Part shown: in pieces, positions 257-21,525 of the stretch | Numbering within the stretch: the first letter of the stretch is position 1 | How the letters are laid out: each line of letters starts with the position of its first letter | Source: Promethearchaeota archaeon | GTDB lineage: Archaea; Asgardarchaeota; Lokiarchaeia; Sigyniarchaeales; Sigyniarchaeaceae | Reading direction: 5' to 3' | DNA length: 24,000 nt | Assembly: GCA_041305945.1 (NCBI GenBank) | Contig: JBGLND010000001.1 | Span: forward strand, 1,427,753-1,451,752 | Notes under the pieces: generated by a model | What the model saw: only the letters and a program-made list of their open reading frames with translations | The model's database searches: none | What the model was told of the DNA's origin: nothing | Program-made: the position numbers and the translations under genes

Positions 257-305
257 AATAACACATTAGCCGGTGTTCCTCGAATAACACTGGAGAGCGA
301 GTGCC

Positions 306-317
306 CTATATATTTAA
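306..317 (-). promoter_or_regulatory. TATA-like box (minus strand TTAAATATATAG) upstream of the 72-aa ORF
   Basis: AT-rich archaeal TATA-like element in the 87-bp gap between the beta-CASP stop (344) and the small ORF start (256). Confidence 0.3.
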
Positions 318-330
318 CCCGGGGGAAGGC

Positions 331-337
331 AAAAAAA
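331..337 (-). terminator. oligo-T tract (T7 on minus strand) just after the beta-CASP stop
   Basis: Minus strand reads CGGGCCTTTTTTTGCC starting right after the TAA at 344-346. Oligo-T tracts act as archaeal termination signals. Confidence 0.4.
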
Positions 338-343
338 GGCCCG

Positions 344-1702: not shown

Positions 1703-1751
1703 TACAAGTAACGAAATGGTAGCAAAAGATTAAAATTTTCAGAGAAAAGTA

Positions 1752-2639
1752 ATGATCGAAATAGGTGATTTCACAATGCAAATACCAACAGACGTGCAAA
1801 TCGGCATAATCGGTGGCACTGGGGCAGACATTGAATTACACGATGTCGTGAAGGTGAAACCGTACACGCCATATGGACAGCCATCGGATTTCATTCACGT
1901 TGGTACCTTCGCGGGGCACAAAGTCGCGTTCTTGGCAAGGCACGGGCCCGGCCACCAAATCCCACCCCACATGCTCAATTTCCGGGCGAACTTGTGGGCA
2001 CTCAAGGAGCTTGGAGTAACGCGCGTGTTCTCCCCGTGCGCTGTCGGGAGCCTTAGGAATGAACTCGACAAGGGCGACTTCGTGATCGTCGACCAGTACA
2101 TCGACCGCACCAGAAAGCGGCTCGACACGTTCTACGAGGGCGGGCAGGTATGCCACGTCTCGCAAGCGGACCCGTTCTGTCCCGAGATGAACGACATCTT
2201 CCTCGAAGCGGGAAAACAAATCCCGGGCTTGAAGATCGTCAAGGGCGGGACGTACGTATGCATCGAGGGCCCCCGGTTCTCGACCAGGGCGGAATCAAAG
2301 GTGTTCCACCAGTGGGGAGCTGACGTCATCGGGATGACCGTGTACCCCGAGGCCGTGCTCGCCGCTGAACTTGCCATGTGCTACAGCACGATCGCCACAG
2401 TCACCGACCTCGACGTGTGGGCAGCCTCGTGCAAAAAATGCGGGGTCGTCGAAATCGGGAAATCCTGCCCGAAATGCGGCGGGGACATCAAGCCGCTCGC
2501 CGTGTCGGTCGAGGAGATACTGGAAACAATGGAGAAAAACGCCGTTAACTTGAAGAAGCTCATCGAGATCGCCATCCCGAAGATCCCGACAGCCCGCAAG
2601 TGTGCTTGCGGAAACGCCCTCGCGGGCGCGATCTTGTGA
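1752..2639 (+). CDS. mtnP: 5'-methylthioadenosine phosphorylase (PNP/MTAP family) with inserted CxxC-x8-CxxC knuckle
   Basis: Family blocks present: IGIIGGTG, FLARHG, GPRFSTRAESKVFHQWGADVIGMT, TVTDLDVW and VSVEEIL. An alternative start is ATG 1776 (MQIPTDV). The C-terminus carries a CAC (CxC) motif. Confidence 0.85.
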   Translation: MIEIGDFTMQIPTDVQIGIIGGTGADIELHDVVKVKPYTPYGQPSDFIHVGTFAGHKVAFLARHGPGHQIPPHMLNFRANLWALKELGVTRVFSPCAVGSLRNELDKGDFVIVDQYIDRTRKRLDTFYEGGQVCHVSQADPFCPEMNDIFLEAGKQIPGLKIVKGGTYVCIEGPRFSTRAESKVFHQWGADVIGMTVYPEAVLAAELAMCYSTIATVTDLDVWAASCKKCGVVEIGKSCPKCGGDIKPLAVSVEEILETMEKNAVNLKKLIEIAIPKIPTARKCACGNALAGAIL

Positions 2640-2680
2640 TGGCGGGAGAAAAAAATCGATACAAGAGACGTGCTTGAACC

Positions 2681-3223
2681 ATGCCGCAAAAACCAGATTA
2701 TTACGACAAGTTAATACGAAATGTCCCCGATTTCCCGAAGAAGGGAATCCAGTTCAAGGACATCACCACGCTCATCAAGGACCCCAAGGGGCTAAAGAAT
2801 GCCATCGACGACATGGCTGCTGCCCACAAGGACAAGAAAATCACGAAGGTCGTGGGCATCGAATCCCGCGGTTTCATCTTCGGATCGGGCATCGCCTACC
2901 AGCTCGGGGTTGGGTTCATTCCCATCCGGAAGCCCGGGAAGCTCCCTGCAAAAACCGAGGCCATGGAATACTCGCTGGAATATGGCACCGACAAGATCGA
3001 AATCCACGTGGATGCAATCAGCAAGGGTGACAACGTGCTTATCGTGGACGATTTGCTTGCAACGGGAGGAACCGCTGCCGCTGCAACCAAGCTCGTCGAG
3101 AAACTCGGCGGGAAGGTGGCAGGGGTCGCTTTCGTGATCGAGCTGGCGGGCAGCCTTCACGGGCGCGACTTGCTTAAGGGGTATAACATCACGAGCCTCG
3201 TGAAGATCGACGTTCACGAGTGA
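2681..3223 (+). CDS. apt: adenine phosphoribosyltransferase
   Basis: 180 aa. Carries the PRPP-binding loop VLIVDDLLATGGT plus the blocks FKDITTL and ESRGFIFG. Lies 41 bp downstream of mtnP on the same strand. Confidence 0.9.
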   Translation: MPQKPDYYDKLIRNVPDFPKKGIQFKDITTLIKDPKGLKNAIDDMAAAHKDKKITKVVGIESRGFIFGSGIAYQLGVGFIPIRKPGKLPAKTEAMEYSLEYGTDKIEIHVDAISKGDNVLIVDDLLATGGTAAAATKLVEKLGGKVAGVAFVIELAGSLHGRDLLKGYNITSLVKIDVHE

Positions 3224-3798
3224 TGCACCCGCTTCTCTTCCACGTTTTTTTTCACTTTTTCCTTGCACCTCGTGCAGAACACGGCATGTTTCATGTCGGT
3301 GTCATGTATGCTGTTCGAAAAGGACATCACGCATAGCGGATCGTTGCAGTGCCTTGCACCGAGCACGTGCCCGATTTCGTGGGCGGCTTCCTTGAAGACG
3401 CGCTCGTTGAACAGGTCCTTGTTGGGCAGGAAACCGTGAAACTCGGGACGCAAGCGGAACGTCGAGATCACGCAGCTTGTACCCCCCACGCGGGCCTCGC
3501 CGAAGATGAAATTGAGTGCTGGCCTCGTGTCGGAGAAAAGGTCCACCTCCACGACCCCCAAGGCAACAGCATTCGGTCCCTGCTTGCAGTGCAATCCATC
3601 GAGGTAGGCCAAGTACGGGCCGCTCGGTTCCTGGTTCCTCGTTGGATTGATGGCATTCAATGCTTGCACGTGGCTCACGTGGATGTCGATCGAGCATCCG
3701 AGCATCGTGAAAAGCTTCTTCAAGTATAAAAGCAACCGTGGTTCGAGACGGGCATCACCGATCCCGAAAATGACGACATGCAACTCCAAGCTGGCCAT
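3214..3798 (-). CDS. amzA: archaemetzincin (zinc metalloprotease)
   Basis: HEIGHVLGARHCNDPLCVMSF...FCTRCKEK matches the archaemetzincin signature HExxHxxGxxHCx4CxM...CxxC. The ORF track starts at a TTG (3819); the first ATG is at 3798 (MASLELHVV). There is a 10-bp convergent overlap with apt. Confidence 0.85.
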   Translation of the reverse strand: MASLELHVVIFGIGDARLEPRLLLYLKKLFTMLGCSIDIHVSHVQALNAINPTRNQEPSGPYLAYLDGLHCKQGPNAVALGVVEVDLFSDTRPALNFIFGEARVGGTSCVISTFRLRPEFHGFLPNKDLFNERVFKEAAHEIGHVLGARHCNDPLCVMSFSNSIHDTDMKHAVFCTRCKEKVKKNVEEKRVHHS

Positions 3799-3847
3799 CC
3801 TTGGATGGAATGAATACAACGAATGGAAAAAAACTCGCTGGTACCGG

Positions 3848-6799: not shown

Positions 6800-6968
6800 C
6801 CTCGCTTTGCTGATGCAAGATTGATGGGTTATTCTGGTGATGCTCGCACGGGCGGCTGACCTCCCGTGCATGGCATAGCCTTGCTTGAAATATCTTGTTC
6901 TATTCACTTATAATAGTACACATGTTAACGCACCATGGTTAGTAGATATTTGATGGAGTTACACGGCG

Positions 6969-7874
6969 ATGGTTCTCAAGGCAGGCGATCACGTGATCAT
7001 CAGCGGGGGAAAAAAGCACGAGTGGTTCGTCCAGCTGGCTCCCGGGAAAGCATTGCACACCCATGCCGGCATCATCCCGCACGATGGCATCGTGGGAAAG
7101 GAATTCGGTGACATGGTCGGCACGACCAATACTGGCGCCCAATTTATACTAGTAAAGCCACTGATGCACGATATTTCCACGCGGTTCGCCCGAAAAACGC
7201 AGATCGTCTACCCAAAGGATACTGGCTACGTTATAATGAACGCGGGAATCGTTCCCGGCTCGCGGGTGCTCGAAGCAGGGACAGGCTCGGGGGCAATGAC
7301 GTCGCTGCTGGCATCCATCGCCGGGGCGAGAGCACCGGGGCGTGTCGTGTCGTTCGAGGTCGTTGAAAAGCACCACGAGGCCGCGAAACGAAACCTGGCA
7401 TTGGCGGGTCTTTCTGGCGTCGTTGACATGCGGCTCGGTGACTTGCTCGATCCCGCAGTGCAAAAGAGCCTTGAAATGGAAACCCCATTCGACGCGTGTT
7501 TCTTCGACATGCCATCGCCGTGGGACGTCGTCGACCTTGCCCACGCGGTACTCGTGCCGGGCGGCGTGTTCTGCTCGTTCTCCCCCGTCATCGAGCAAGT
7601 CAAGAAAATCGTTGCCACGTTGAAACTTGGTAACTGGACCCGCGTCGAGGCCGTTGATTTGCAGTTGCGCACGTGGCAAGTGAAGGACAACGCCACCCGG
7701 CCTGCCTCGCACGGCCACCACACCGGCTACCTGGTGTTTGCCAGGAAGACGAACGTGAAACCACCCTTGGAATGGGATAGGAAGGTGCGGAAGGCGTTGA
7801 ACAGGGAGCTTGCCGAGCAAGGCTTGATCCCCGACGAAGTGGACGACGGTGCCCTCGATTTCCTTGATGAATGA
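6969..7874 (+). CDS. trmI: tRNA (adenine58-N1)-methyltransferase, TrmI/Gcd14 family
   Basis: N-terminal beta domain (GDHVIISGGKKHEWFVQL...HTHAGIIPHD), the block QIVYPKDTGYVIMNAGI, the SAM-binding motif VLEAGTGSGAMT, and C-terminal HTGYLVFARK. Carries an acidic ~45-aa C-terminal tail. Confidence 0.8.
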   Translation: MVLKAGDHVIISGGKKHEWFVQLAPGKALHTHAGIIPHDGIVGKEFGDMVGTTNTGAQFILVKPLMHDISTRFARKTQIVYPKDTGYVIMNAGIVPGSRVLEAGTGSGAMTSLLASIAGARAPGRVVSFEVVEKHHEAAKRNLALAGLSGVVDMRLGDLLDPAVQKSLEMETPFDACFFDMPSPWDVVDLAHAVLVPGGVFCSFSPVIEQVKKIVATLKLGNWTRVEAVDLQLRTWQVKDNATRPASHGHHTGYLVFARKTNVKPPLEWDRKVRKALNRELAEQGLIPDEVDDGALDFLDE

Positions 7875-7875
7875 G

Positions 7876-7910
7876 CCAACGAACGAACCAACGAACCAAC
7901 CAACGAACGG
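7876..7910. repeat. imperfect tetranucleotide CNAA tract (CCAA CGAA CGAA CCAA CGAA CCAA CCAA CGAA CGG)
   Basis: Read directly in the 70-bp spacer between the trmI stop (7874) and the next start (7945). Confidence 0.6.
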
Positions 7911-7944
7911 ATTAACGAGCGACCTGTAAACGGAGTACAAGAAA

Positions 7945-8604
7945 ATGCCCTCGAGATGGCGCGTCCGGCGCGTGTTCCGGCCCGTGGTGCTTGGAATCGC
8001 CCGTGGCCTTGCACGTGCGGGATTGTCCCCCAACGGCGCCACGGGACTCGTCTTGCTCCTTTCATTCGCAGCGTTTTTTTACGAGGTGCTCCTGCCGTTG
8101 CCCGTGACGTGGCTTACTGGCCTCGGGTTTGCGCTGCTCGTGTTCGTGACAGGCATCATGGACGGGGTGGACGGCGCGATCGCGCGCCAGACCGGGAAGC
8201 AATCCAAGTTTGGGGGCGTGCTGGACTCGACGGTCGATCGCGTATCGGACGCGCTCGTGTTCTGCGCGCCGGCGTTCCGCGACCTGCTCGTGAGCGATGT
8301 CGTGAATGGCCAACTAGCATGGCTGCCCGGCTTGGATGTCATTCCATTGTGGTTCTGGTCGACGTTCCTCGTGATCGGGGCATACTTGACCAGTTACGTG
8401 CGTGCTAGGACGACCCTTGCCGATGCAACGGTCGACACGGACGTGGGTGCACTCGCGCGATCCGAGCGCCTCCTTTGCGTCGTGATAGGCACGGCATGCG
8501 GCGCGCAATGGATCACGATCATCGCCTTGGCCCTCCTCACAAACGTGACGGCGATCCACAGGTTACGTGTTGCTCGAAACGGCTTGGCGCAGAAGGAGAA
8601 GTAG
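7945..8604 (+). CDS. CDP-alcohol phosphatidyltransferase (archaeal lipid head-group synthase type)
   Basis: Exact family motif DGx2ARx8Gx3Dx3D, seen as DGAIARQTGKQSKFGGVLDSTVD. Multi-TM hydrophobic profile, 219 aa. Confidence 0.85.
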   Translation: MPSRWRVRRVFRPVVLGIARGLARAGLSPNGATGLVLLLSFAAFFYEVLLPLPVTWLTGLGFALLVFVTGIMDGVDGAIARQTGKQSKFGGVLDSTVDRVSDALVFCAPAFRDLLVSDVVNGQLAWLPGLDVIPLWFWSTFLVIGAYLTSYVRARTTLADATVDTDVGALARSERLLCVVIGTACGAQWITIIALALLTNVTAIHRLRVARNGLAQKEK

Positions 8605-8640
8605 GAACGCGTGGAATGACCACCCGCCGGCACGCGCGAT

Positions 8641-8880
8641 TCATCCTTGCTTTTTATCCTGATCCGATTGGAACAACTTGAACTCCCCCTTGATCTTCGA
8701 CCGCTCTTTCTTGTCGGCCGAGACTTTTTCGAACGAGAGGATGACCGGCGCGTCGCCCTGCAAGGCCGCGTTGATGAAATTGATGAAACCGATTTGCTGG
8801 GTCGGGGGAATGTTAATCTTGAGCTCTATGGGCTTGCGCTGCTTCGGGCTTGTCGTGGATAACACGAGTTTGATTCTCAT
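8641..8880 (-). CDS. hypothetical 79-aa protein; strand-strand-helix-strand-strand pattern (possible beta-grasp), ends in Gly
   Basis: ATG-initiated ORF (8878-8880) downstream of the gelsolin-TM gene on the same strand. Sequence is MRIKLVLS..KPIELKINIPPTQQIGFINFINAALQG..APVILSFEK..GEFKLFQSDQDKKQG. There is no GG terminus and no motif I can name. Confidence 0.4.
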   Translation of the reverse strand: MRIKLVLSTTSPKQRKPIELKINIPPTQQIGFINFINAALQGDAPVILSFEKVSADKKERSKIKGEFKLFQSDQDKKQG

Positions 8881-9054
8881 GCTTTTACCGATCTCCGTGC
8901 TGGTGTGATGATCTAGCGGTCGTGGATTAAAAACACGGCCACAACGGGGCCGGGCGGAACGAACGTTGCATGATGCGAACGCGCCATGTTCTTGGGCATC
9001 CTTGACGCGTGAATCCCGTGAAAAAAGGCGTGAAAAAGAGAAAATAGATGATGT

Positions 9055-9786
9055 TTATTCTTGCGCGATGCGCACGAACTCTGCTACAACACCCAACGTG
9101 AACGGCACGAACGCGACAAGCTCCATGAGTAAAATCAACAACTGGAACACGTCAAGCATCCCGACCCCTGTCAAATCTGGTCGCCAGTTGTTGATGTAGA
9201 GAATGGTAAGAACGCCCACGCCGAGCCCTACAGCCAAGGTAATGACCATGTACGTGCGCTTGGACAGTGCCGAGAAGAGCGCCGCGACGCCGAACGCGAT
9301 CATGCCGAATGCCGTCATCCACGTGAGGGTTTCCAGCCAGCAGTTATTTGCGCTTGAACCACCCAGCATCCCCGCGAAGATGCACTCGTAAGAGTTTGCC
9401 TGGTATGTTGCCAAGTCCATGCTGTATAGCGTGTAAATGATGAAGACAGCCAAGCCGACGCCAGCAAGCCCGGCAACCATGCCTGCAATCGCGAATATCC
9501 GGGTCTTCCCCTGCCCGAGCGGCGAGCCGAGCAACCGCTTGATTTCTTGCTGCAATTCCGGTGCCGGGTTCCTTCCCACCTTCTGGAATTGGAAGCTAGA
9601 ATAGCGATCTCGCAATGAAAGCAAGAGTTTCTTTGCTTCATTCTGATCCTTGATTTTTGATTTCGGGCCATGCCAAATATAAATTACACGTCCTTCCGTG
9701 TCGACAAGCAGCGCGACATCACGCACGCTCAAACGAGGGGACTCTATCCATTTCCCAGCCCTGAACACGTAAGCGAATACTCTCAT
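9055..9786 (-). CDS. gelsolin-like domain protein with four C-terminal transmembrane helices
   Basis: The N-terminal ~90 aa show gelsolin-repeat landmarks: DVALLVDTEGRVIYIWHGPKSKIKDQNEAKKL...FQKVGRNPAPEL (compare gelsolin G4 IIYNWQGAQST...VVQGKEPAHL). Four hydrophobic helices follow: IFAIAGMVAGLAGVGLAVFIIY, WMTAFGMIAFGVAALFSAL, YMVITLAVGLGVGVLTILYI and LLILLMELVAFVPFTLGVV. The ORF track starts at TTG 9813; the first ATG is 9786 (MRVFAYVF). Confidence 0.7.
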   Translation of the reverse strand: MRVFAYVFRAGKWIESPRLSVRDVALLVDTEGRVIYIWHGPKSKIKDQNEAKKLLLSLRDRYSSFQFQKVGRNPAPELQQEIKRLLGSPLGQGKTRIFAIAGMVAGLAGVGLAVFIIYTLYSMDLATYQANSYECIFAGMLGGSSANNCWLETLTWMTAFGMIAFGVAALFSALSKRTYMVITLAVGLGVGVLTILYINNWRPDLTGVGMLDVFQLLILLMELVAFVPFTLGVVAEFVRIAQE

Positions 9787-10286
9787 GTTGTTAACCTTCT
9801 CGTCATTCTTCAACTTTCTTGCAAGGGCGTGGAAGCATTCCCGGGCGTCTCGATGAATCGTGAAGATAATTGCCTCGTGGAAAACCTTGCAAGTCTTCGT
9901 ACTATGTCTAATTTTTGGCTAATGAGCTTTAAATATTTTTCAAAAAAAAAAACCCTACCCTCAAACCACATTTGTCCGGTAAAATAGTTATTCCCTCTCT
10001 CACCTTTCACGCTGATTTTTAAAATAGGACTATCCAGCGGTGTTTCAAGCAAACAACACCATCATGGTCGAGCTGCGTGATTGGCACGATCATGATCTGG
10101 AATTTCGGGTCGTTTCAACCATTATTTTATTCCAGCATCGTGGCGTCGTGCATGTTAGTGTCGTCGAGGTGGAGGACCTCCAGCCCCGACAAGCCTTCGA
10201 GGAACACGCCGAGGTGGTTGAAATAGTTGCCCGATAACGGGAGCTATTTTTTTTTGTAAGCGTCTATTCTATTCATTAGAAGAATA

Positions 10287-10376
10287 TTGAAATGCCTTGA
10301 AATGCCAAAAATGTTGCTGAAATGCCCAGAAATGCTATAGATTTTACTGAAATGACAAAAGTGTTGTGAAAATGCC
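10287..10376 (+). repeat. 10-bp-phased array of YTGAAATGCC units (6 strong, 3 degenerate) overlapping the E2 promoter and start
   Basis: Units start at 10287 ttgaaatgcc, 10297 ttgaaatgcc, 10307 aaaaatgttg, 10317 ctgaaatgcc, 10327 cagaaatgct, 10337 atagatttta, 10347 ctgaaatgac, 10357 aaaagtgttg and 10367 tgaaaatgcc. The last unit contains the E2 ATG (10372). Unit 6 (TATAGATTTTA) is TATA-like. Confidence 0.8.
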
Positions 10377-10866
10377 GTCCCTCCCACTCCCCATCTGGCA
10401 AGAACGAGTCAAGAACGAGCTCGATGTGCTTCGTAATATGAATGCATTGGTCGAGAGTTCGGTTCAAGATTTTGGCGAAACGATACAATTTCTTATCAAC
10501 GTGCGTGCGAAAGGCTTGGTGAAAGATACGAGCAACAAGCTGGTCCCCATGATGGATCACCAGATCCAGATCGAGATCAACCGGGACTTCCCGTATCCCG
10601 GTGGCATCAAGTTCCTTTGGCGTTCACCTATTTTCCACCCGAATATCGACCCGTACGAGACAGGTTACATTTGCCTCAACGTGCTCAAGAAATGGTCGCA
10701 GCTGAGCGACTTGAGCACCACGGTCAAGGCCCTGACAATGTTGATAACGCACCCGAACCCCGAGGATCCCTTGAACTATCCCACGTGCTTGGAAGCGGCC
10801 AAGTATTTCTTCGAGAACCCGCCATCGGAAGAATCGAACGACGATGACATCCTCGTCATCGATTAA
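10372..10866 (+). CDS. ubiquitin-conjugating enzyme E2 (UBC fold) homologue
   Basis: Landmarks are RVKNELDVL (helix 1), FPYPGGIKFLWRSPIFHPNID with HPN at 10636-10644, catalytic Cys in TGYICLNVL (TGC 10672-10674), KKW and HPNPEDPLN. The ORF track starts at GTG 10366; ATG is at 10372. Confidence 0.85.
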   Translation: MPSLPLPIWQERVKNELDVLRNMNALVESSVQDFGETIQFLINVRAKGLVKDTSNKLVPMMDHQIQIEINRDFPYPGGIKFLWRSPIFHPNIDPYETGYICLNVLKKWSQLSDLSTTVKALTMLITHPNPEDPLNYPTCLEAAKYFFENPPSEESNDDDILVID

Positions 10867-11107: not shown

Positions 11108-12376
11108 ATGGGAACGTTCGTAGCATATGTCCTGATGGGCGAGGAAGACTTCGTACCCACCAATAAATTAGAAGAGGATCAAGTCGCGTTCATCATTGAC
11201 ATGGAAAAGAAGATCATCTATGCTTGGCACGGGCGCAATTCGAGCAAGCTCCAGCAATACAAGTGCGGGACCAACGCCACGAAATTGAAGTCGAAGCTGC
11301 ACTACTATGGCTTCGGCACGGAGATTATCAAGCAAGGTGGCGAGCCTGCCGAGGTGGCCGTGGAGGTCGAGGAGTTGCTCGCAGGGAAGGGCGAGATACC
11401 GTCCAAGATAAAGGAGACGATCACCGAGGAAGCAATCAAGACGGGCAAGATCGCTGCACCATCATCCGTCGCGGTGCAACCGGAACCAGAGGAACACGTG
11501 GTGCGGCCATCATCTCGAGCAGAACCCCCGCAACCAAGCAGCCTCAAGCCATCCCTTGCCGAAATCGCACGCGTCGAGGCAGAACGCCGGGCCACGATGA
11601 CCACGGAATTGAAACGAGCCGAAGACCTTGCACGGGTCAAGGAAGACAATGAACGACGTGCAAGGGGCGAGGCCCGCGAGAAAGAAGCCGAGGCCTTGTT
11701 GCTGAAACGCAAGCTGGATGAAGAAACGCGGTTCTTGGAAGCTGAATCACGGAAGACCGAGCAGCTCGAGGAAAAATTGAAACAGGAATCGCTCGAGCGC
11801 CATCGCCTCCAGAAATTGATGGAGAAAGAACGGGAGGACATGCGCAAGGAGTACGAGACCCGCATACAGGACGAGATCAAGGCGCGCGTTGACGAGGAAC
11901 AAAAGAAAACCTTGGAATTGCAAGAAGAACTCGATCGCGTGAAGAAAGAACGGGACGATGCCATCAAGTCAAAGGAGCGGGAGATCGAAGAGACCAAGAA
12001 GGACATCGAGACCCTCATGATGGACAAGGACCAGCAGCTCAAGGAACAGATCGATAAGGAGCGGCAAGAGCTGGCGTTGGCCAAGGATGAAGAGAAGGAA
12101 GCCATCAAGGCTCGATATGCCAAGGAAAAGTCGGAGCTCGAATCAAAGGTTAGCGACGAGCAGAAGTCGTTGGAGGCAAAGCTCGAGCAAGAACGCCAGA
12201 TGCGACTGTCCTTGCTCGACCAGGCCTCCCGCGCAGCGCAAGAAGCGGTCGAGCGCGAGGAAAAGGTTCGCGAGGAGGTCGAGAGCAGCGTCCGTGCAGA
12301 GATGGATGCAAAGCTTGCCGCCGAGCACGTTGAAAAGGAACGCCTCGAGAAACGGCGATGTGCGGCCCGCGCATGA
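11108..12376 (+). CDS. gelsolin-like domain protein with Pro/Ser linker and ~260-aa E/K/R-rich coiled coil
   Basis: The N-terminal ~95 aa read DQVAFIIDMEKKIIYAWHGRNSSKLQQYKCGTNATKL...EIIKQGGEPAEV (gelsolin-repeat pattern, paralogous to 9055-9786). The linker is APSSVAVQPEPEE..PPQPSSLKPS. From ~11555 to ~12352 there is an uninterrupted charged heptad-like sequence (EAERRATMTTELKRAEDLARVKEDNERRARGE...EKERLEK). Confidence 0.7.
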   Translation: MGTFVAYVLMGEEDFVPTNKLEEDQVAFIIDMEKKIIYAWHGRNSSKLQQYKCGTNATKLKSKLHYYGFGTEIIKQGGEPAEVAVEVEELLAGKGEIPSKIKETITEEAIKTGKIAAPSSVAVQPEPEEHVVRPSSRAEPPQPSSLKPSLAEIARVEAERRATMTTELKRAEDLARVKEDNERRARGEAREKEAEALLLKRKLDEETRFLEAESRKTEQLEEKLKQESLERHRLQKLMEKEREDMRKEYETRIQDEIKARVDEEQKKTLELQEELDRVKKERDDAIKSKEREIEETKKDIETLMMDKDQQLKEQIDKERQELALAKDEEKEAIKARYAKEKSELESKVSDEQKSLEAKLEQERQMRLSLLDQASRAAQEAVEREEKVREEVESSVRAEMDAKLAAEHVEKERLEKRRCAARA

Positions 12377-12695
12377 ACCCGCGGTGCGCGGCGATGTTCC
12401 GCAGTTTCAAGATGATGTCGGTGCTAGGCACGTCGCGCGGGCATCGTTCTTGGCACGTGAAGCACGTGGAGCACAGCCACAGCAAGTCAGAATTCAAGAG
12501 CTCGTCATCGAGCCCGATCATGGCCTCGCGGATGAGTTCGCGTGTCCGCATTGCCGTGCGACGCCCGCTGGGGCAGCCGCCCGAGCACGTGCCGCATTGA
12601 TAACATGACTTGAACCGTTCATACATCTCGTCTTCGACGATTTCTTCCACGAGTCTTCTATCAATTTTCTTGATGATTTGTGGGTTTAATGCCAT
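12150..12695 (-). CDS. hdrC: HdrC-like 4Fe-4S dicluster protein with aberrant (non-homologous) C-terminal third
   Basis: Two cluster motifs, CYQCGTCSGGCPSGRRT and LWLCSTCFTCQERCPR, then LRNIAAHRGFM..PH, all typical of heterodisulfide reductase subunit C. After about residue 119 (~12348) the ORF is an R/P/A-rich tail lying wholly antisense to the coiled-coil CDS. ATG at 12695 (GTG at 12704 in the track). Confidence 0.6.
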   Translation of the reverse strand: MALNPQIIKKIDRRLVEEIVEDEMYERFKSCYQCGTCSGGCPSGRRTAMRTRELIREAMIGLDDELLNSDLLWLCSTCFTCQERCPRDVPSTDIILKLRNIAAHRGFMRGPHIAVSRGVPFQRARRQALHPSLHGRCSRPPREPFPRARPLLALRGRPGRARTVASGVLARALPPTTSARR

Positions 12696-12755
12696 GAGAT
12701 TCACTCTTTTTTTTATCTTAACGTGTTACGTGCTGTTCCTTTCTTGGTATCATTA

Positions 12756-14483
12756 TTACGCGATCTTGATGACCTTTTGCTTCAAGATGTACGAGTCGAA
12801 CACGGGATAGTTGTTATACGACACCGTGTACCGCTGTATCCAGTCCTTCTTCACCTTGTCGATAAGCTTGGCCATCACGTCGGGTTTTACCTTTGCGGTC
12901 GCGTCAGTCCACAAGGTGTTGCCCATGACCGACGTGACCACCGAGCCGTTCCTGCAGACCACCTCGCCGTTCTTGATGGTATAGGCCGTGTGCCCGAACG
13001 CCTTGATGGCGTCCTTGCCCGTGGCACCCTCGGGCTTGATGTCGTAGATCGCCACCGAGCCCTCGGCGCCGGCACCGAGGTGCCCCTTGTCGTTCATGCC
13101 GAGGCAACGCGCGGTGGCCGCCCTCGTGATCGTCGCGATCTCGGCCAGGGAATATTCACGGTCTTGTTCAGCGAGCTTGCTCCGCTCCGCCGCGAGCTTG
13201 TGGACGCCCGCGAGCGTCTCGGCCCTGTGTTTCCTGTCGATGAGCCATGCGATGACGTCCGGGTAGTGCGTGAATGGCCCGGCGTTGGGATGGTCGGTCG
13301 TCAAGTACACGCGCCACGGGTCCTTGATCATGAGCAGCAGTTCCAGCCCGATTGCCCACTGGATGGCGTTCACGGACACCTTCGGGTCGAAGATGTAGGG
13401 CACGATGCCTGATCCCGACTCGGTCTCCGCGTGCCCGTTTACCCACTTCACGCCGGGTTTCACGCCCCAGGCGCTCTGGCCGGCGATGTGATACAGTGCG
13501 TGCTCCCACGGGCTGTCGGCGGTCATGGTCGTCGTGTTCGCGCCAAGGATGACTTGGCCGACGTCTATGGTCACGTGCGGGTTCTGGTTTATGTATTCCG
13601 CGATGGGCTCGGCACCTGAGCAGAAGTCGTTCCACCCCTTCCCGCCGTACGCGTTGAACTGGCAATGGGTGAGGTGCATCACGTTCTTGCGTTCGCTTGA
13701 TGCCGGCTCTATGCCTTTCACGCTCGCGAGCGTCTGCTTCGTGATGTCGAAGTTCCCGGGGTGCCCGAGGTTGTTCCCGTGCAGGTGGATCGAGTGGGGC
13801 AGGCCCAGCATCTCGTTCACCTTGGCCAAGCTCGTGATGATGTCCCGTGGGCTCACGTCGAAGTAGGCGACCTTGTCTTCGAGGGCACCGAACTCGGATT
13901 TGCCCCACGCCCACATCTCCGAGCCACCAGGATTCACGATCTTCACGGCGTAGCCTTTCGTGGTCTTCAAGAGCCATGCAACGTACGCGGCGAGGCTATC
14001 CATGTCCCCGTTCTTGATGAACTCCATGACGAACCAGTTGTTGCCGAACAGGGGAAACGCGGCTTTGTCGATGATGGGGATGTCGTGGAACTCCTCGTGC
14101 GTGTGCCGTGCCTTGATGGGTGGCATGGCAGGTTCTATGCACGTCGTGTATCCCATCTGCGCGTAGCGGTACCCCGTGATGAACGTGCTGGGCACGGAAT
14201 ACCCCGTGCCTGACCGCGTCGCGTTCGTTTTCCCGACGGGGTCTTTCACGTGGTCCTCGGGGCGGAACAGCCTGCCCATGTTCACCTTCGCACCCGAGAT
14301 GTGCGTGTGGATGTCCACGCCACCCGCCATGACGACCTTCCCGGCGGCATCGATGACCTCTGCATCCCGCGGGACCTCTTTCGGGTCGACGATCCTGCCG
14401 TCCTTGATGCCGATGTCCATTTTATCGTGAATGTTGTTGGCCGGGTCTATCACGAATCCGTTCTTGATGAGCATGCTACCCAT
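12756..14483 (-). CDS. fwdA: formylmethanofuran dehydrogenase subunit A-like amidohydrolase
   Basis: Near-continuous resemblance to methanogen FwdA as I recall it: MLIKNGFV, GGVDIHTHISGAKVNMGRLFRPED, VPSTFITGYRYAQMGYTT, ARHTHEEF, YPLFGNNWFVMEF, AAYVAWLLK.TKGYA.KIVNPGG, LPHSIHLHGNNLGHPGN, TTDHPNAGPFT.YP, AYTIKNGEVV. The track start is TTG 14522; ATGs lie at 14483 and 14474. Confidence 0.8.
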   Translation of the reverse strand: MGSMLIKNGFVIDPANNIHDKMDIGIKDGRIVDPKEVPRDAEVIDAAGKVVMAGGVDIHTHISGAKVNMGRLFRPEDHVKDPVGKTNATRSGTGYSVPSTFITGYRYAQMGYTTCIEPAMPPIKARHTHEEFHDIPIIDKAAFPLFGNNWFVMEFIKNGDMDSLAAYVAWLLKTTKGYAVKIVNPGGSEMWAWGKSEFGALEDKVAYFDVSPRDIITSLAKVNEMLGLPHSIHLHGNNLGHPGNFDITKQTLASVKGIEPASSERKNVMHLTHCQFNAYGGKGWNDFCSGAEPIAEYINQNPHVTIDVGQVILGANTTTMTADSPWEHALYHIAGQSAWGVKPGVKWVNGHAETESGSGIVPYIFDPKVSVNAIQWAIGLELLLMIKDPWRVYLTTDHPNAGPFTHYPDVIAWLIDRKHRAETLAGVHKLAAERSKLAEQDREYSLAEIATITRAATARCLGMNDKGHLGAGAEGSVAIYDIKPEGATGKDAIKAFGHTAYTIKNGEVVCRNGSVVTSVMGNTLWTDATAKVKPDVMAKLIDKVKKDWIQRYTVSYNNYPVFDSYILKQKVIKIA

Positions 14484-14840
14484 GATGAATCGCACTGGTA
14501 CAGTTATGTCGATGATATGCAAGCCCCGTGCCTTCGTTGCACGGCGGCGGAACGAAGAAACCTACCATAGGTCCTTCCATCTTACTGCTATGATATTAGA
14601 TCAGCTGGCCTATGATTTATACATACGTGTTCACGGGCACGGTCGCCCCTTATTGAGTCACGCACTTTCAAAAATAAGTCACGCGCCCCGGCGGGTGGCT
14701 GGTTCCGACGCGGGTACCAGCGCGCGCCCCCGCCCGCGCCAGCCACCACGGGCACGGTGCTTCTGGTCTGGGTTGGAACGCCGCGTGCCCGGTGGTACAA
14801 GAATCGAGCAAAGAAGCGGCTTGCCGGGCCTTGTTTCTGT

Positions 14841-14846
14841 AAAAAA
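14841..14846 (-). terminator. oligo-T tract (T6 on minus strand) 24 nt after the stop of 7-TM paralog A
   Basis: Minus strand reads CATTTTTTACAG downstream of the stop at 14871. Confidence 0.35.
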
Positions 14847-14870
14847 TGTTCGATTTCACCAAGATCATTG

Positions 14871-15944
14871 TCATTCGTTTCTTTCATGCAAGGCTGGAAG
14901 AAATGAGAATGCGTTCGTGAACGACGCGTCCAGCGCTTGTTTGATGTTTCTATCCCCCGCGGGTGCTTGCTTGGACAAGATGGCATCCGTCGATCTGGAG
15001 AACATCACGAATGCCTTGTCCATCAAGTTGTCCTGGTTTTTGAATGCCATATATATGCTTGCGACCGTGGTTTGTTTGACCAGCACCGTGATGTCGTCGA
15101 ACACGATCTTCTGCACCTTCAAGGCACGTTCATGTCCCGCATTCGGGCTGGAGCCAATGCCATCCAGCGCCCGCTGCACGCGCTCTTCCAAGCCACCGGT
15201 CCTGTCCGAGCCGGGGAACGTCCGCCGGTACAACATGTTCTTGCCTGTGTCCCTCACTTCCACCATCAATAGCAGCGACGGCGACATGAACAGCGCGGCA
15301 GGGAACCGGGCGACGATGGCCGCCTCCGTTGCGAACATGATGAACGGCGGGATGATGACCGCGTAGGTTGGTAGCAACTGCGCGATGGTCAAGGGATACA
15401 GGACCAAGATCAATATAACGCTCACCACGATGAGCGCTGGGAACACCAGGAAAGCGGGTTCCAGGCGCTCGCCCCGCACGCGCCGCACGGTGGTCGTGAT
15501 GTACTCACGCTGGACGGCGAGCAGCAGCACGAGCATGCCGAACATACCAACGCGCTCCAGCGGCGAGAACACGACCGTGTGGTCGGTGAACGATGCCGGT
15601 TCGAGGAACACGGATACCACCGTGACGGTCACAAGCGTCATGCTTGCCACGATCACGTATTTATTGCGTCCTTTCAGCGGGCCAACCAGCATCGTGAAAA
15701 ACTTGATGGCAAAATGGAACCCGCAAGACACGAACACCACGCCGATGAGCGCCGCCTCCGGGTTCGAGAACAGCCGTCCCAGGTAAAAAAAAATGCCATA
15801 CATGCCGATGCAAATGTTTCCAAGGGCGCACGGGAACACCGGGGGGTACCCCTTCCTCGATAGCCTCGCGAGCAAGACAAACCCCGATAGGAACGGCGGC
15901 AAGCTACCCGCGAGCCACAAGACCGTCTCTGCTGCTGTCACCAT
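14871..15944 (-). CDS. uncharacterised 7-TM membrane protein with ~135-aa C-terminal soluble domain (paralog A)
   Basis: Seven hydrophobic segments followed by a soluble tail ending AFSFLPALHERNE. Colinear with paralog B, sharing W-L-x-G-x-LPP, VFLEPAxFT, PLERV, FLVFPxLI, VYPLxIAxxLPTY, FPAAxFxSPS, LVEVR, VFxDITVL and AFSFLPALH. ATG 15944 aligns the N-termini (the track starts at TTG 15956). Confidence 0.75.
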   Translation of the reverse strand: MVTAAETVLWLAGSLPPFLSGFVLLARLSRKGYPPVFPCALGNICIGMYGIFFYLGRLFSNPEAALIGVVFVSCGFHFAIKFFTMLVGPLKGRNKYVIVASMTLVTVTVVSVFLEPASFTDHTVVFSPLERVGMFGMLVLLLAVQREYITTTVRRVRGERLEPAFLVFPALIVVSVILILVLYPLTIAQLLPTYAVIIPPFIMFATEAAIVARFPAALFMSPSLLLMVEVRDTGKNMLYRRTFPGSDRTGGLEERVQRALDGIGSSPNAGHERALKVQKIVFDDITVLVKQTTVASIYMAFKNQDNLMDKAFVMFSRSTDAILSKQAPAGDRNIKQALDASFTNAFSFLPALHERNE

Positions 15945-15982
15945 GCGAACCCACAACTCCGCGCGTGACTAGCGACGGGGCC

Positions 15983-15990
15983 ATATAAAT
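15983..15990 (-). promoter_or_regulatory. TATA box (minus strand ATTTATAT) ~43 nt upstream of the paralog A ATG
   Basis: Minus strand reads GGATTTATATGG. The geometry matches the paralog B promoter (~41 nt). Confidence 0.45.
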
Positions 15991-16026
15991 CCATACATCC
16001 CGCCGGGACGGCGTGAACGCGGGCGT

Positions 16027-17100
16027 TCACGGGTCACGCTTGTGCAACGCGGGAAGGAACGAGAAGGCGTCCACGAAGCAGCGGTTGAGCCCGGTCTCGA
16101 TGGTCGCAGTGTCCTTTCCATTGTTATTCGAGAAAAAAACGTTCACGGAATCATTGAAGTTGCGAAACGTGGTTTCAAGGAGCTCGTCCGGGCGATCGAT
16201 GAGCATGAAGGCGACGTTCCCGTCATGGTGATCGAAGAGAACGGTGATGTCTTGGAACACGAGTTTCTTCAACACGGTCTCCTTCCCGCTACCACCTTTC
16301 ATCCTCGCCATGACCTCGTTCACCATCGAAACCACCGGCTCGAGCGAATCGTCCTGTGGCTGGCCGCGGGCAAGCGCCCGTTGGAATAGCGTCGTGCCCC
16401 CCGGCCCCCGCACCTCGACGAGCAACGGCACGGACGGGCTCAAGAACATCGCCGCGGGAAACGTCGCCACCAGCATCGTCTCGGCGGTGAACGCGAACCA
16501 CGGCGGCACGATCACGACGTACGTGGGCAAGGCGCCCGCGATGCTCAGCGGGTAGACGACGAGGATCATGGCGAAGCCGGTCGTGATCAGCACGGGAAAC
16601 ACAAGGAACTTCGCGCTCAAGGACTCGCGGTGCACGCGCTGGATGGTGTGCACCATGAAGTCGAGCTGTATGAACAAGGAACATGCAAGCAACGAGAGCA
16701 TGCACACGCGTTCGAGCGGCGCGAACAATATCGTCGCCTCCGTGAATGTAGCGGGCTCGAGAAACACGTCCACGAGCATGATGATTCCCAGGATGCCGAC
16801 AACGCGTGCCAGCACGCGGGGATACTTTCTCGTGCTCCCGAACATTTGCTCGAAAAACGTGCACGCGAAGTAAAATCCAATCGCAAGCGAGAACAAGCCA
16901 AGGAAAATCAATTCCGTGTTCGACATCAACCGGGCAAAGAAATAGAACACGCCAAACATACCGACGAAGATGTCCCCCGCCGCGCACGACGTCACGGGCG
17001 GGAAGCCCCTCTTCCGGTACTTCAAGAGCAAGCACAAACCCGCCGTGATGGGGGGCAAACCACCCAGTAGCCACGTCGCAAGCTCGAATGTAGATGCCAT
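16027..17100 (-). CDS. uncharacterised 7-TM membrane protein with ~135-aa C-terminal soluble domain (paralog B)
   Basis: 357-aa ATG ORF with the same architecture and conserved blocks as paralog A (identity not computed; many conserved blocks by eye). Ends AFSFLPALHKRDP. Confidence 0.75.
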   Translation of the reverse strand: MASTFELATWLLGGLPPITAGLCLLLKYRKRGFPPVTSCAAGDIFVGMFGVFYFFARLMSNTELIFLGLFSLAIGFYFACTFFEQMFGSTRKYPRVLARVVGILGIIMLVDVFLEPATFTEATILFAPLERVCMLSLLACSLFIQLDFMVHTIQRVHRESLSAKFLVFPVLITTGFAMILVVYPLSIAGALPTYVVIVPPWFAFTAETMLVATFPAAMFLSPSVPLLVEVRGPGGTTLFQRALARGQPQDDSLEPVVSMVNEVMARMKGGSGKETVLKKLVFQDITVLFDHHDGNVAFMLIDRPDELLETTFRNFNDSVNVFFSNNNGKDTATIETGLNRCFVDAFSFLPALHKRDP

Positions 17101-17136
17101 GGAACCGTCTCCTAGTTGCTTATCGCGCCGTATACA

Positions 17137-17145
17137 CTATTAAAG
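17137..17145 (-). promoter_or_regulatory. TATA box (minus strand CTTTAATAG) ~41 nt upstream of the paralog B ATG
   Basis: Minus strand reads GCTTTAATAGTGTATA, in the 90-bp divergent spacer shared with the FAD oxidoreductase gene. Confidence 0.45.
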
Positions 17146-17190
17146 CTTCCAGCCCATTCTCCAGTAGTAACCGGATCGCGTGATTGATGC

Positions 17191-18555
17191 GTGGCGAAAA
17201 AAATCTACAGGGAAACGGAACGCGACATCCCCGTCGTGGCCAAGGTCGACGTGCTCGTCGTGGGTGGATCGCAAAGTGGCGTTGCTGCAGCCGTGAGTGC
17301 CTCTCGTCGTGGTGCAAGCGTGCTTCTCGTCGAACGTAATTGCTTTCTTGGAGGCCAATCCGTTGCAACGATGGTGGTGCAATGGGAGAAACGTGCGTTT
17401 ATCAACAACTTGGGAGCTGTTGCTACCCGTGGCATCGCGAAGGAAATGCTGGATCGCATCCTCGCGAAAGGAGGCTCCGATGCCTTGTGGAACGACCCGC
17501 CGGGTTGCCCCGAGATGCGCGATGGCGAGGAATGGCTCGACGTGGAGGCGATCAAGATCACGCTGCTGGAGATGTGCTTGGAAGCCAAGGTCGGCCTCCT
17601 GCTCGACACGATGTGCGTCGGGGCGATGGTGGACAAGGATGGCCCGTCGCCACGCGTCACGGGTATCATAGTCGAGAACAAGGGCGGCCGGCAAGTCATC
17701 GAGGCGCGCGTCACCATCGACGCGACGGCATACTTGGACGTCGGGTGGTTTGCCGGGGGCGAGGGTGCAGTCATCGTGCATCCCGTTCCCGAGCGCATCG
17801 GCCCTGGCTGGTACACCATCTTCGATGGCATCGATTCGGGCAGGTTCATCGACCACGTGCTCTCGCACGGCGGCATATCCGGGTATCCATCGCTGGAAAA
17901 CCCGGCCAAGGTGCGCTACCACCTCGCCACGAACCGGTTGCTCTTGTTCCGGGGCTTCGGGGACACGCTCGACGAGGCGTTCGAGAAGGGCCTCCTGGAC
18001 AATTGGCCCGAGGGGCTTTCCTTGCCATTCGCACTGAACACGAAATGGTGGGGCGGCACGAGGTGGTGCACGAGCATGGACGGCATCAAGGAGCTGGACG
18101 CGATGGATGGCTTCGCCTTGTCCAAGGCCGAGATCCAGCGCCAGCTCGTCGATTGGATCACGCTGCAAGTGTTCCGGTTGTTACCCGGCTGGGAGAAAGC
18201 GTACATCGCACGTACGTCCACGCGCATAGGTCTGCGGGAAACCCGCGTGCTCAAGGCCGTCACCATGCTGGCTCGCAAGGACATCTTCGAGCCCGATCAC
18301 GCGCGCCTCGATTGTGTCGGGCGTTCGGGCGCGCACGACCCGGGGAAAAACAAGCTGTGGCACGCGTATCCCGTCCCGTACGGCATCATGGTACCTGAAA
18401 AGCTTGATGGCCTCTTGTGCTGCTCCCGCACCATCGGTGCTGCAGACCGTACCGCCCTCGACGCCCATCGAGGGATAACGCCGACGATCGTGGTGGGCGA
18501 GGCCGCGGGGGGTGTCGTGTCGCTGCTGGCGGTGCAGAAAATAAAAACAGCTTAA
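17191..18555 (+). CDS. FAD-dependent oxidoreductase (FAD_oxidored / GIDA-like Rossmann N-terminus)
   Basis: GTG start, because an in-frame TGA lies at 17185-17187. Dinucleotide-binding motif VDVLVVGGSQSGVAAAVSASRRGASVLLVERNCFLGG. 454 aa. Confidence 0.7.
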   Translation: MAKKIYRETERDIPVVAKVDVLVVGGSQSGVAAAVSASRRGASVLLVERNCFLGGQSVATMVVQWEKRAFINNLGAVATRGIAKEMLDRILAKGGSDALWNDPPGCPEMRDGEEWLDVEAIKITLLEMCLEAKVGLLLDTMCVGAMVDKDGPSPRVTGIIVENKGGRQVIEARVTIDATAYLDVGWFAGGEGAVIVHPVPERIGPGWYTIFDGIDSGRFIDHVLSHGGISGYPSLENPAKVRYHLATNRLLLFRGFGDTLDEAFEKGLLDNWPEGLSLPFALNTKWWGGTRWCTSMDGIKELDAMDGFALSKAEIQRQLVDWITLQVFRLLPGWEKAYIARTSTRIGLRETRVLKAVTMLARKDIFEPDHARLDCVGRSGAHDPGKNKLWHAYPVPYGIMVPEKLDGLLCCSRTIGAADRTALDAHRGITPTIVVGEAAGGVVSLLAVQKIKTA

Positions 18556-18568: not shown

Positions 18569-18923
18569 CCCACACCCCCTCGATCTTCATCCCGCATTTT
18601 CCGCAGCGCCCGTCCCCCACCCGCAATTTCTGGACCCGGAACCCCCAGCGCTCGATGAGCAGCTCGCCGCAGCCCGGGCAGAAGGTGTTCTCTCCGGTGT
18701 CGCCGGGCACGTTGCCGGTATAGACATAGCGAAGCCCGGCGGCCAGCCCGATCTCCCGCGCCTTGCGCAGGGTCTGCACGGGGGTGGGGGGCCGGTCGGT
18801 CAGCCGGTAGGTGGGATGGAAGCGGCTGATGTGCCAGGGCGTGTCCGGCCCCAGGTCGTCGACCAGAAACGCCGCCAGCGCCTTGAGTTCATCAGGGGTG
18901 TCGTTCAACCCGGGGACGATGCT
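18564..18923 (-). pseudogene. 3' fragment (~120 codons) of an AmmeMemoRadiSam-type radical SAM enzyme; 5' two-thirds (CxxxCxxC region) missing
   Basis: IVPGLNDTPDELKALAAFL, PWHISRFHPTYRL.DRPPTP, GLRYVYTGNV, CPGCGELLIERWGF and CGKCGMKIEGVW match the C-terminal part of that family. The reading frame upstream hits a TAA at 18936-18938, and the DNA beyond encodes a PfkB kinase on the other strand. Confidence 0.65.
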
Positions 18924-19434
18924 GGCGGCTGCGGGTTACGACCGCGTGCGGTACATTATTGACCACGTTGACATCCTTGCATGCTCCCGGTCAGAGCTGG
19001 GTAAATTGTTCGGGAAAACCACGATCGAGGAGAATGTCGCGTCTTGCTTCTCGAGAACCAGCGTGCGTCTCATCGCCCTGACCTTGAGCGCCGAGGGAAG
19101 CAGGGCATTCACCCGCCACCACGCGACACCCATCGTCCCACCATACAAGGTGCCGGTTGTAGACACCACGGGCGCGGGCGACGCGTTCTGTGCCGGCGTC
19201 TTGCACCGGGCGTGCAAGGAATTGCAAGCAACAAGACCGGCAGGCGGGAGCCGCGTTACCAAGGATGACCTCGATCGCTTGCTGGGGAAGGAGAAAGGTG
19301 TGGCGGGCTTCCTCCTGGATTGTCTGAAGCACGGCAACGCGGTCGCGGCATTCAAGATACGAGCTGAAGGGGCTCAAGGAAACCTTCCCCACGCCAGCCA
19401 GGTCGGCGAACTCATCAGGAACGGGATGCCTTGA
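18919..19434 (+). pseudogene. 5'-truncated PfkB-family carbohydrate kinase (C-terminal ~165 aa only)
   Basis: HVDILACSRSELGKLFG and the PfkB signature-2 VVDTTGAGDAFCAGVL are present. The N-terminal ~130 aa (lid and GG motif) are absent; upstream DNA is the antisense of the radical-SAM fragment. An internal ATG at 18919 could still allow expression. Confidence 0.6.
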
Positions 19435-21081: not shown

Positions 21082-21525
21082 GTGATTGATCCGACCATGT
21101 TGCTCGTTCCAACACGATTGAAAACTTCTTCCATCGAGGGCCTCGGGATGTTCGCGGTTGAGGACATCCCGTCTGGCACGAAAATCTGGGAATACAAGGA
21201 AGGCTTCGACCTCGTCTTTTTTCCAGGTGACCTCTTGAAAATGCCATGCTGGCAGGCCCAGTATCTCGAGAAATACTGCTTCATGTTCGAGCAGAAACTC
21301 TACTTCTGCGTCGACGATGCAAGGTATATGAACCACGCGGATGTGCCCAACTGCACCGACCGGATAGACGGGACATACGCGATCAGGGATATCAAGGCGG
21401 GGGAGGAGATCACCTGCGATTACCACAAGATGGGGGTCACCGCGGAGGACATGAAATTCAACGTCGGCTGGATGTGCCACGAATCCGAACAGGAGCATCC
21501 AGATAAAGCCAGCAACACAGGCTAA
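21082..21525 (+). CDS. small SET-domain protein (putative lysine methyltransferase)
   Basis: SSIEGLGMFAVEDIPSGTKIWEY, DDARYMNHADVPN (compare the RFxNHSCxPN motif) and AIRDIKAGEEITCDY (compare the GEELxxDY motif). 147 aa from GTG 21082, or 142 aa from ATG 21097. Confidence 0.75.
   Translation: MIDPTMLLVPTRLKTSSIEGLGMFAVEDIPSGTKIWEYKEGFDLVFFPGDLLKMPCWQAQYLEKYCFMFEQKLYFCVDDARYMNHADVPNCTDRIDGTYAIRDIKAGEEITCDYHKMGVTAEDMKFNVGWMCHESEQEHPDKASNTG

Follow-up and report, generated by a model that had tools for sequence, protein, structure and literature searches.

The stretch of DNA analysed here (the window) comprises 24,000 nucleotides (nt) of the Promethearchaeota archaeon assembly GCA_041305945.1 (contig JBGLND010000001.1, positions 1,427,753 to 1,451,752). 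It includes two adjacent genes, gene B and, downstream of it, gene A, each of which encodes a protein of 357 amino acids (aa). In both proteins a membrane domain with seven transmembrane (7TM) helices is followed by a soluble C-terminal domain (C-domain), and the architecture is very probably that of a seven-helix bundle joined to a longin-type domain. The features of the two genes are as follows.

17137..17144, minus strand: TATA-like box TTTAATAG of gene B, with its first T 44 nt upstream of the ATG
16027..17100, minus strand: gene B, predicted 357-aa 7TM-longin protein (open reading frame list; coding sequence including stop codon)
16462..17091, minus strand: seven-helix domain of gene B, residues 4-213 (structure model, hydropathy, loop charges, Foldseek)
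16429..16461, minus strand: proline-rich linker of gene B, FPAAMFLSPSV, residues 214-224, joining helix 7 to the longin-like domain
16066..16428, minus strand: longin-like domain of gene B, residues 225-345 (structure model, Foldseek, sub-threshold Pfam matches)
16030..16065, minus strand: conserved C-terminal tail of gene B, FSFLPALHKRDP (alignment of 10 members)
15982..15989, minus strand: TATA-like box TTTATATG of gene A, with its first T 45 nt upstream of the ATG
14871..15944, minus strand: gene A, 357-aa paralog of gene B (coding sequence including stop codon, ATG at 15944)
15306..15935, minus strand: seven-helix domain of gene A, residues 4-213 (gap-free alignment to gene B, hydropathy)
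14910..15272, minus strand: longin-like domain of gene A, residues 225-345 (gap-free alignment to gene B)
14841..14846, minus strand: T6 tract, 25-30 nt past the stop codon of gene A (read from the sequence)

A first-pass annotation, made from the letters of the window, had described the two open reading frames (ORFs) as tandem paralogs of an unnamed family, and this was borne out. Both ORFs are present at the positions listed above, and the two proteins are colinear and share 38 % identity over 356 residues with 0 gaps (E 2e-88). Gene callers made identical 357-aa calls for genes A and B on four independent public contigs (L001-L004) with identical DNA; for gene A the ORF list also gives a TTG at 15956 as an alternative start. 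The conserved blocks named in the first-pass annotation (LPP, VFLEPAxFT, PLERV, YPLxIAxxLPTY, FPAAxFxSPS, VFxDITVL and AFSFLPALH) were all found in the alignment of A and B, though the one given as LVEVR is really (L/M)VEVR. That these ORFs are not real genes has a probability close to nil. Nothing speaks for it except the absent annotation, and it is refuted by the gap-free identity between the two ORFs, by homologues of the same architecture in distant low-GC archaea (E down to 1e-26) and by a conserved pattern of loop charges.

Both TATA-like octamers consist only of A and T on the coding strand. The pattern TTTAWWWR occurs 9 times on the two strands of the 24-kb window, against 3.3 occurrences expected, and because there are so few and two of the TATA-like matches lie at like distances from two paralogous starts, a chance occurrence is unlikely. 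Judged by the archaeal TATA consensus, we infer that TTTAATAG and TTTATATG are promoters. Each gene does have its own box, as had been proposed, and the distance to the start, given there as ~41-43 nt, is 44 or 45 nt from the first T. The T6 tract that follows gene A is a possible archaeal terminator.

Searches with full-length A or B found zero matches in Pfam, NCBIfam or the sequences of the PDB, even at E 10. No transporter, permease or enzyme family matched either half of the protein at E<=10 (full-length proteins and a consensus of the membrane domain were used), and the PADLOC anti-phage defence profiles gave zero matches at E<=1. A HMMER profile of the two paralogs was compared with 1.84 billion cluster representatives. 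At least 11 clusters belong to the family, with E 1e-26 to 1e-4 outside the source organism; the figure of 11 is a minimum, since the profile was built from two sequences and was not iterated. Clusters formed at 90 % comprise 1-3 proteins each, and all sources name the proteins hypothetical. I, K and N are abundant in the relatives, which hence come from low-GC organisms; their contigs also hold genes for TBP, a proteasome-activating ATPase, an Arf-like GTPase and a UFM1-ligase-like protein, and one relative is encoded near 4.4669 Mb in the complete Candidatus Lokiarchaeum ossiferum genome (CP104013.1). Several database entries are too short because the true start is not ATG, and the full ORFs of the relatives are all of the same length and architecture. 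The same two-part architecture is always seen, from the GC-rich lineage of the source organism to Lokiarchaeia. Word-indexed homologue searches with a single protein, the full alignment or the C-domain alignment added nothing to the proteins already found, membrane-helix words probably swamping the index, and a scan of a genome collection with the window pair gave no match. Given this narrow distribution, the family is not a core Asgard or proto-eukaryotic feature.

An AlphaFold model of protein B places the membrane helices at residues 4-31, 34-59, 62-87, 93-114, 128-158, 163-187 and 193-213, with a small hairpin in the loop that connects helix 4 to helix 5. The seven transmembrane helices per protein counted in the first-pass annotation are thus reproduced by the model, and they are reproduced by the hydropathy profile as well. 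With helix boundaries taken from the model, charged loop residues were counted in 10 full-length members. Summed over these members, the loops on one side have 100 K+R and 20 D+E, and those on the other side 26 K+R and 52 D+E. This distribution makes the former cytoplasmic and the latter external, and thus puts the N-terminus outside and the longin-like domain in the cytoplasm.

The residues of the membrane part that are kept in at least 8 of the 10 members are mostly Gly, Pro and aromatic residues, and the charged positions conserved to this degree are E6 and R57, at the outer face, and K30, at the inner one. The alignment of 10 members includes no conserved His, Cys or Asp and no conserved polar network within the membrane helices; a site of catalytic or metal-binding type is thus not apparent, and this speaks against a hydrolase or a transporter. 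Three candidate identities for the membrane part were rejected: a PAQR- or ceramidase-type hydrolase, as there is no conserved His or Asp; a transporter, as there is no profile match and no conserved polar residue in the membrane; and a rhodopsin, as no Lys lies in the middle of helix 7 in any of the 10 members. A Lys in helix 7 is found only at its cytoplasmic end, in 3 of the 10.

The C-domain was modelled together with the membrane part. AlphaFold run on the two paralogs alone gave a predicted local distance difference test (pLDDT) score of 44, and run on a nine-member alignment it gave, for protein B, a pLDDT of 84.3 and a predicted template modelling score (pTM) of 0.80, with all five models at pLDDT 80-84. 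In the predicted structure the elements of the C-domain are β225-231, β237-242, α253-269, β279-282, β285-292, β295-301, α306-325 and α331-345. The order β-β-α-β-β-β-α-α with a five-stranded sheet is the longin order, and only membrane helix 7 precedes the first strand. The order that the first-pass annotation had read from the sequence (hairpin, helix, three strands, then helices) agrees with the model, which has two helices at the end.

The 50 best Foldseek matches in the PDB, with E values of 4.6e-3 to 0.095, are 19 longin subunits and 31 seven-helix proteins, and no other fold class is present among them. The longin neighbours (AP-2 and AP-1 sigma, zeta-COP, TRAPP subunits, Tca17 and Fuzzy/Inturned) have a probability of 1.00. 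Their target-normalised template modelling score (TM-score) is 0.39-0.63 where the target is a single domain (17 cases) and 0.23-0.24 for the two Fuzzy/Inturned chains of ~390 residues. The seven-helix neighbours are 28 G-protein-coupled receptor (GPCR) chains from several classes (including A, B, C and taste-type) and 3 microbial rhodopsins, with a target-normalised TM-score of no more than 0.52. The same two classes were seen in the Foldseek viral structure library, where no match reached E<=1e-3 and a giant-virus synaptobrevin was among the matches.

In sequence comparisons, three longin-type Pfam families surfaced below their thresholds. Intu_longin_1 (E 0.025) and Fuz_longin_1 (E 0.027-0.18; 15.1 bits against a cutoff of 26.1) matched single members, and Clat_adaptor_s matched the family consensus (E 0.029; 14.8 bits against a cutoff of 22.5) in an alignment that is in topological register. 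The C-domain profile found only noise among the PDB sequences. The first-pass annotation had left the choice between a Roadblock and a longin fold; the longin alternative agrees with the topology and the structural neighbours, and the Roadblock/LC7 alternative fell away. In the Roadblock fold a helix precedes the first strand and one helix stands at the end (PMC10933270). A Roadblock/LC7 identity was rejected, as the element order is wrong, the N-terminal helix is missing and there is no Robl_LC7 match at E<=10; an hhalign comparison of the C-domain with a Roadblock protein of the same organism aligned only 12 columns (E 0.31). We regard the C-domain of the model as longin-type, an assignment for which the support is good but not conclusive, and not as Roadblock-type. 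An unrelated tail fold, or membership of a known transporter or permease family, had been named beforehand as telling against the first-pass annotation; both were examined, and neither was found.

The linker between helix 7 and the first longin strand follows the pattern FP(S/A)xxFxxPxxP. P215 is invariant, and S216, F219, P222 and P225 are kept in 8-9 of the 10 members. Among 24 scored regions only one, the cytoplasmic loop of four residues that connects helices 5 and 6, is more conserved than the linker, and conservation is about the same in the membrane part and in the longin part. In the C-terminal tail, F346, F348 and P350 are kept in 8-9 of the 10 members. We infer that this conservation fits mechanically coupled halves better than loosely tethered ones.

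A second tandem pair lies on a 335-kb metagenomic contig (L014, also L015) from an unrelated low-GC lineage. Its two genes are on one strand, at 6466..7494 and ~7650..8729, and the two copies are 44 % identical; the second gene has been called too short in the database, its start not being ATG. In a neighbour-joining tree the window copies group as sisters, and so do the two copies of L014. Hence, the two duplications were independent. In the other lineages one copy was present in the stretch seen. The independent retention of tandem duplicates in two lineages fits proteins that form homo- or heterodimers.

The surroundings of the pair in the window have to be read with care. Comparison with three independent draft assemblies of the same population (GCA_041305845.1, GCA_041306025.1 and GCA_041305905.1) revealed that the window is a mosaic of ~6.15-kb blocks: positions 40..6156, 6153..10198 and 12352..18509 each match a different draft contig with 99-100 % identity. 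The matches end abruptly at ~40, ~6156, ~12350 and ~18509, the three junctions that were inspected all fall inside genes, and a search at the block junctions found no matching repeats of the kind that would point to a mobile element. The junctions could be an assembly artefact, a product of the processing of the source or a real rearrangement. Both 7TM-longin genes lie well inside one block and are confirmed by four contigs. Only 12352..18509 is the natural context of the pair, the full natural neighbourhood being that of contig L001. The rest of the window, which had been taken as gene context and includes genes for E2, gelsolin-like and SET-domain proteins, is not the natural neighbourhood of the pair.

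In its natural context the pair lies between a gene for a flavin adenine dinucleotide (FAD) oxidoreductase and fwdA-hdrCBA-mvhD. The gene directly downstream (12756..14522, minus strand) encodes formylmethanofuran dehydrogenase subunit A (TIGR03121, 775 bits) and, together with ftr and mch on related contigs, indicates a one-carbon (C1) pathway of the tetrahydromethanopterin (H4MPT) type. Elsewhere the neighbours are Ldh_2 and PIN, DUF2804 and a proteasome ATPase, a metallophosphatase and an amidase, or a DNA methyltransferase and TBP, so that the neighbouring genes are different in every lineage.

Metabolic neighbours such as fwdA/hdr, Ldh_2 and the amidase in several loci would suit a channel, transporter or membrane enzyme with a small-molecule-binding regulatory C-domain of the PAS/GAF-like kind, the fold group that includes the longins. 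Longin, Roadblock, profilin and PAS/GAF domains indeed have a common core (PMC4917890; PMC10933270). We nonetheless consider this explanation quite improbable: neither half matches a transporter, permease or enzyme family at E 10, no conserved His, Cys, Asp or polar network was seen within the membrane helices, the structural neighbours include receptors and rhodopsins but no transporters, and the adjacent genes vary from lineage to lineage.

Our preferred interpretation, put forward tentatively, is that these proteins are dimerising seven-helix membrane receptors or anchors that display a cytoplasmic longin platform for a small GTPase or a Roadblock/longin partner. The seven-helix bundle, with its N-terminus outside, would hold the cytoplasmic longin domain rigidly on helix 7 by means of the short conserved proline-rich linker. 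The protein would work as a dimer, a homodimer where there is a single gene and an A/B heterodimer where there is a tandem pair, and dimerisation between longin domains would build a platform of two longins directly at the membrane. Such a platform might bind or regulate a small GTPase or another Roadblock/longin protein, as in eukaryotes, with the seven-helix part serving as a sensor, or at least as an anchor, that controls it. The dimerisation, the partner and the signalling are proposed by analogy with longins elsewhere; Roadblock/longin proteins act as dimeric GTPase platforms (PMC10933270). The narrower proposition, an archaeal seven-helix receptor that passes an extracellular or membrane signal to a small GTPase via the fused dimerising longin platform, appears unlikely.

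Several observations weigh against the preferred interpretation. There is no GTPase gene adjacent to a family member in any of 8 loci. Some longin domains, for example those of SNAREs and of adaptor sigma subunits, bind no GTPase, and an up-down seven-helix bundle resembling GPCRs is weak evidence of receptor function. The structure model was built on 9 sequences only, and its least confident element is the first longin helix (pLDDT 60-66). No Foldseek match in the PDB reached E<=1e-3 and no Pfam longin model reached its gathering score, and in an hhalign comparison with AP-2 sigma2 (a sequence 100 % identical to 2jkr_I) 83 columns of the C-domain aligned in register at E 0.22, which is not significant.

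With so few sequences in the alignment, every Foldseek match above E 1e-3 and all sequence-profile tests below threshold, the resemblance to longins and GPCRs might be an AlphaFold artefact of a shallow alignment, or convergence, and the genes would then encode lineage-specific membrane proteins of unrelated function. Such an explanation is rather improbable in view of the pTM of 0.80 and the pLDDT of 80-84 in five models, of an element order predicted from sequence before any model existed, of three different longin Pfam families surfacing independently and of the lack of any other fold class among the 50 best PDB matches.

With regard to GTPases, the only GTPase gene within 10 kb of any family member is an Arf/RagA-like gene (L008, 13468..14016) that lies 2.4 kb downstream of member P0005; this GTPase gene adjoins genes for a large PAS histidine kinase and response regulators. 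A Roadblock/LC7 gene, whose product is also MAPKK1_Int-like (LAMTOR3-like), is present in the natural context of the pair (L001, 4120..4566, minus strand), 5.4 kb upstream of it. No GTPase domain was detected in the ORFs of the window that were scanned, a scan that was not exhaustive for ORFs below 150 aa, and within this scope the first-pass annotation was right that the window has no GTPase gene. Its suggestion of GPCR-like signalling to a GTPase gained no conserved GTPase neighbour in the 8 loci and is still conjecture. In a cultured Asgard archaeon the GTPase genes are generally not in operons with Roadblock/longin genes (PMC10933270), and the missing synteny is therefore uninformative rather than negative.

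A different role for the longin domain has also to be weighed. The best structural neighbours of the C-domain are AP-2/AP-1 sigma and zeta-COP, Clat_adaptor_s is the best longin-type Pfam match of the family consensus, the viral structure matches include a synaptobrevin of a giant virus, and adaptin-like and SNARE-like proteins have been reported in Asgard genomes (bioRxiv 10.1101/2024.02.28.582541). These points would favour a membrane-anchored trafficking or adaptor-like factor, in which the longin domain binds peptide motifs or coat/SNARE-like proteins and regulates no GTPase, and the seven-helix part is an anchor or a cargo-like module. However, sigma adaptins, TRAPP and Fuzzy/Inturned longins differ little in Foldseek score, the seven-helix part equals the longin part in conservation, which speaks against a passive anchor, and no coat or SNARE gene lies nearby at the loci examined. 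On balance we think such a factor unlikely.

Other genes of the window were recorded in passing, some of them interrupted at the block junctions. A 1019-aa ORF (3848..6907, minus strand) fuses ACAS_N and the first ~100 AMP-binding positions in frame to an S15 X-Pro dipeptidyl peptidase. The junction between the acetyl-CoA synthetase and S15 parts is at ~6156, and in the draft assemblies the two are separate genes of 630 aa and 793 aa; there, a presenilin-like gene (L019, 6135..7184; L020, 5184..6071; weak Pfam match) adjoins the S15 peptidase gene. The HdrC-like ORF (12150..12704, minus strand) matches the TIGR03290 model (144 positions) only at 2-90, beyond which it consists of unrelated sequence; hdrC is intact in L001 (211 aa), where hdrB, hdrA and mvhD follow it. 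The end of the FAD oxidoreductase gene is replaced at a block junction. Only the C-terminal half of the PfkB model (151-301 of 302) is matched by the ORF at 18811..19434 (plus strand), 300 nt from the 18509 junction, which is possibly a gene fragment. The window further includes a ubiquitin-conjugating enzyme (E2) domain (10366..10866, plus strand; Pfam UQ_con, E 7e-15), a eukaryote-type signature gene, and a SET-domain protein (21082..21525, plus strand; Pfam SET, E 1.4e-14). Two proteins (11108..12376, plus strand, and 9055..9813, minus strand) have gelsolin-like N-terminal domains with a common (I/Y)(I/A)WHG motif; in the first the domain (Pfam Gelsolin, E 6.7e-4, just under the cutoff) is followed by a coiled coil of ~300 aa rich in E and K, and in the second by membrane helices. 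No tRNA genes or Rfam families were found in the window.

Asgard archaea have dozens of small GTPases and of longin/Roadblock proteins. A longin domain on a conserved seven-helix module would be a concrete and testable entry point from the membrane into this machinery, and since the cultured Ca. Lokiarchaeum ossiferum has a member of the family, localisation and pull-down experiments are feasible. If the receptor proposal is true, GTPase signalling would be placed at the membrane in Asgard archaea without lipid anchors. Even if the seven-helix part is a mere anchor, or the protein a regulator of transport, the architecture would be a new one among the lineage-specific domain fusions of Asgard archaea. 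In the literature searched we found no description of a 7TM-longin protein, though an asCOG may already cover the family.

Among known systems, the longin proteins (AP sigma, zeta-COP, TRAPPC1/C4/C2 and the first longins of Mon1/Ccz1/Fuzzy/Inturned) share the β-β-α-β-β-β-α-α order and are the only structural neighbours of the C-domain, but none was found fused to a polytopic seven-helix domain, and the sequence similarity seen here is below every family threshold. The membrane-bound longins known from eukaryotes are tail-anchored SNAREs. Asgard longins have no SNARE motif and no known membrane link, and lineage-specific longin fusions (to GTPases, TRAPPC3 or two-component domains) are common in Asgard archaea (PMC10933270, PMC4917890). 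While Asgard longin fusions as such are well known, the fusion of a longin domain to a seven-helix membrane module was not found described. Roadblock/LC7 proteins (MglB, LAMTOR2/3) belong to the same wider fold group and have the same proposed role as dimeric GTPase platforms (PMC10933270), but they have an N-terminal helix, whereas the C-domain has none and ends in two helices.

The membrane part resembles several seven-helix systems in design. Microbial rhodopsins, including the Asgard schizorhodopsins and the heliorhodopsins, are seven-helix bundles, and Cruxrhodopsin-3 and an Exiguobacterium rhodopsin were among the Foldseek matches; they differ in the retinal Schiff-base Lys in the middle of helix 7, which is absent from all family members. 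The 7TMR-DISM proteins share the design of a seven-helix module with a cytoplasmic signalling domain, but their output is a kinase, cyclase or phosphatase where here it would be a longin, and the match to Pfam 7TMR-DISM_7TM (E 1.3; 9.4 bits against a cutoff of 29) does not indicate membership. GPCRs have seven helices and the same N-out/C-in orientation, which is given here by the model and the loop charges. They differ in that no sequence relationship is apparent: no 7tm_* Pfam family matched at E<=10, and no DRY, NPxxY or CWxP motif was seen by eye in the family alignment. Archaea are not known to have heterotrimeric G proteins. GPR155/LYCHOS and GPR137B are GPCR-like seven-helix proteins that act on the Rag/GATOR1 system, and conceptually they too tie a seven-helix protein to longin/Roadblock-GTPase machinery, though here the longin domain is fused rather than recruited. 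Should the receptor proposal hold, the proteins encoded by genes A and B would be a prokaryotic counterpart, in one polypeptide, of a GPCR-like protein together with a longin/Roadblock complex and its Rag/Arf/Rab GTPase.

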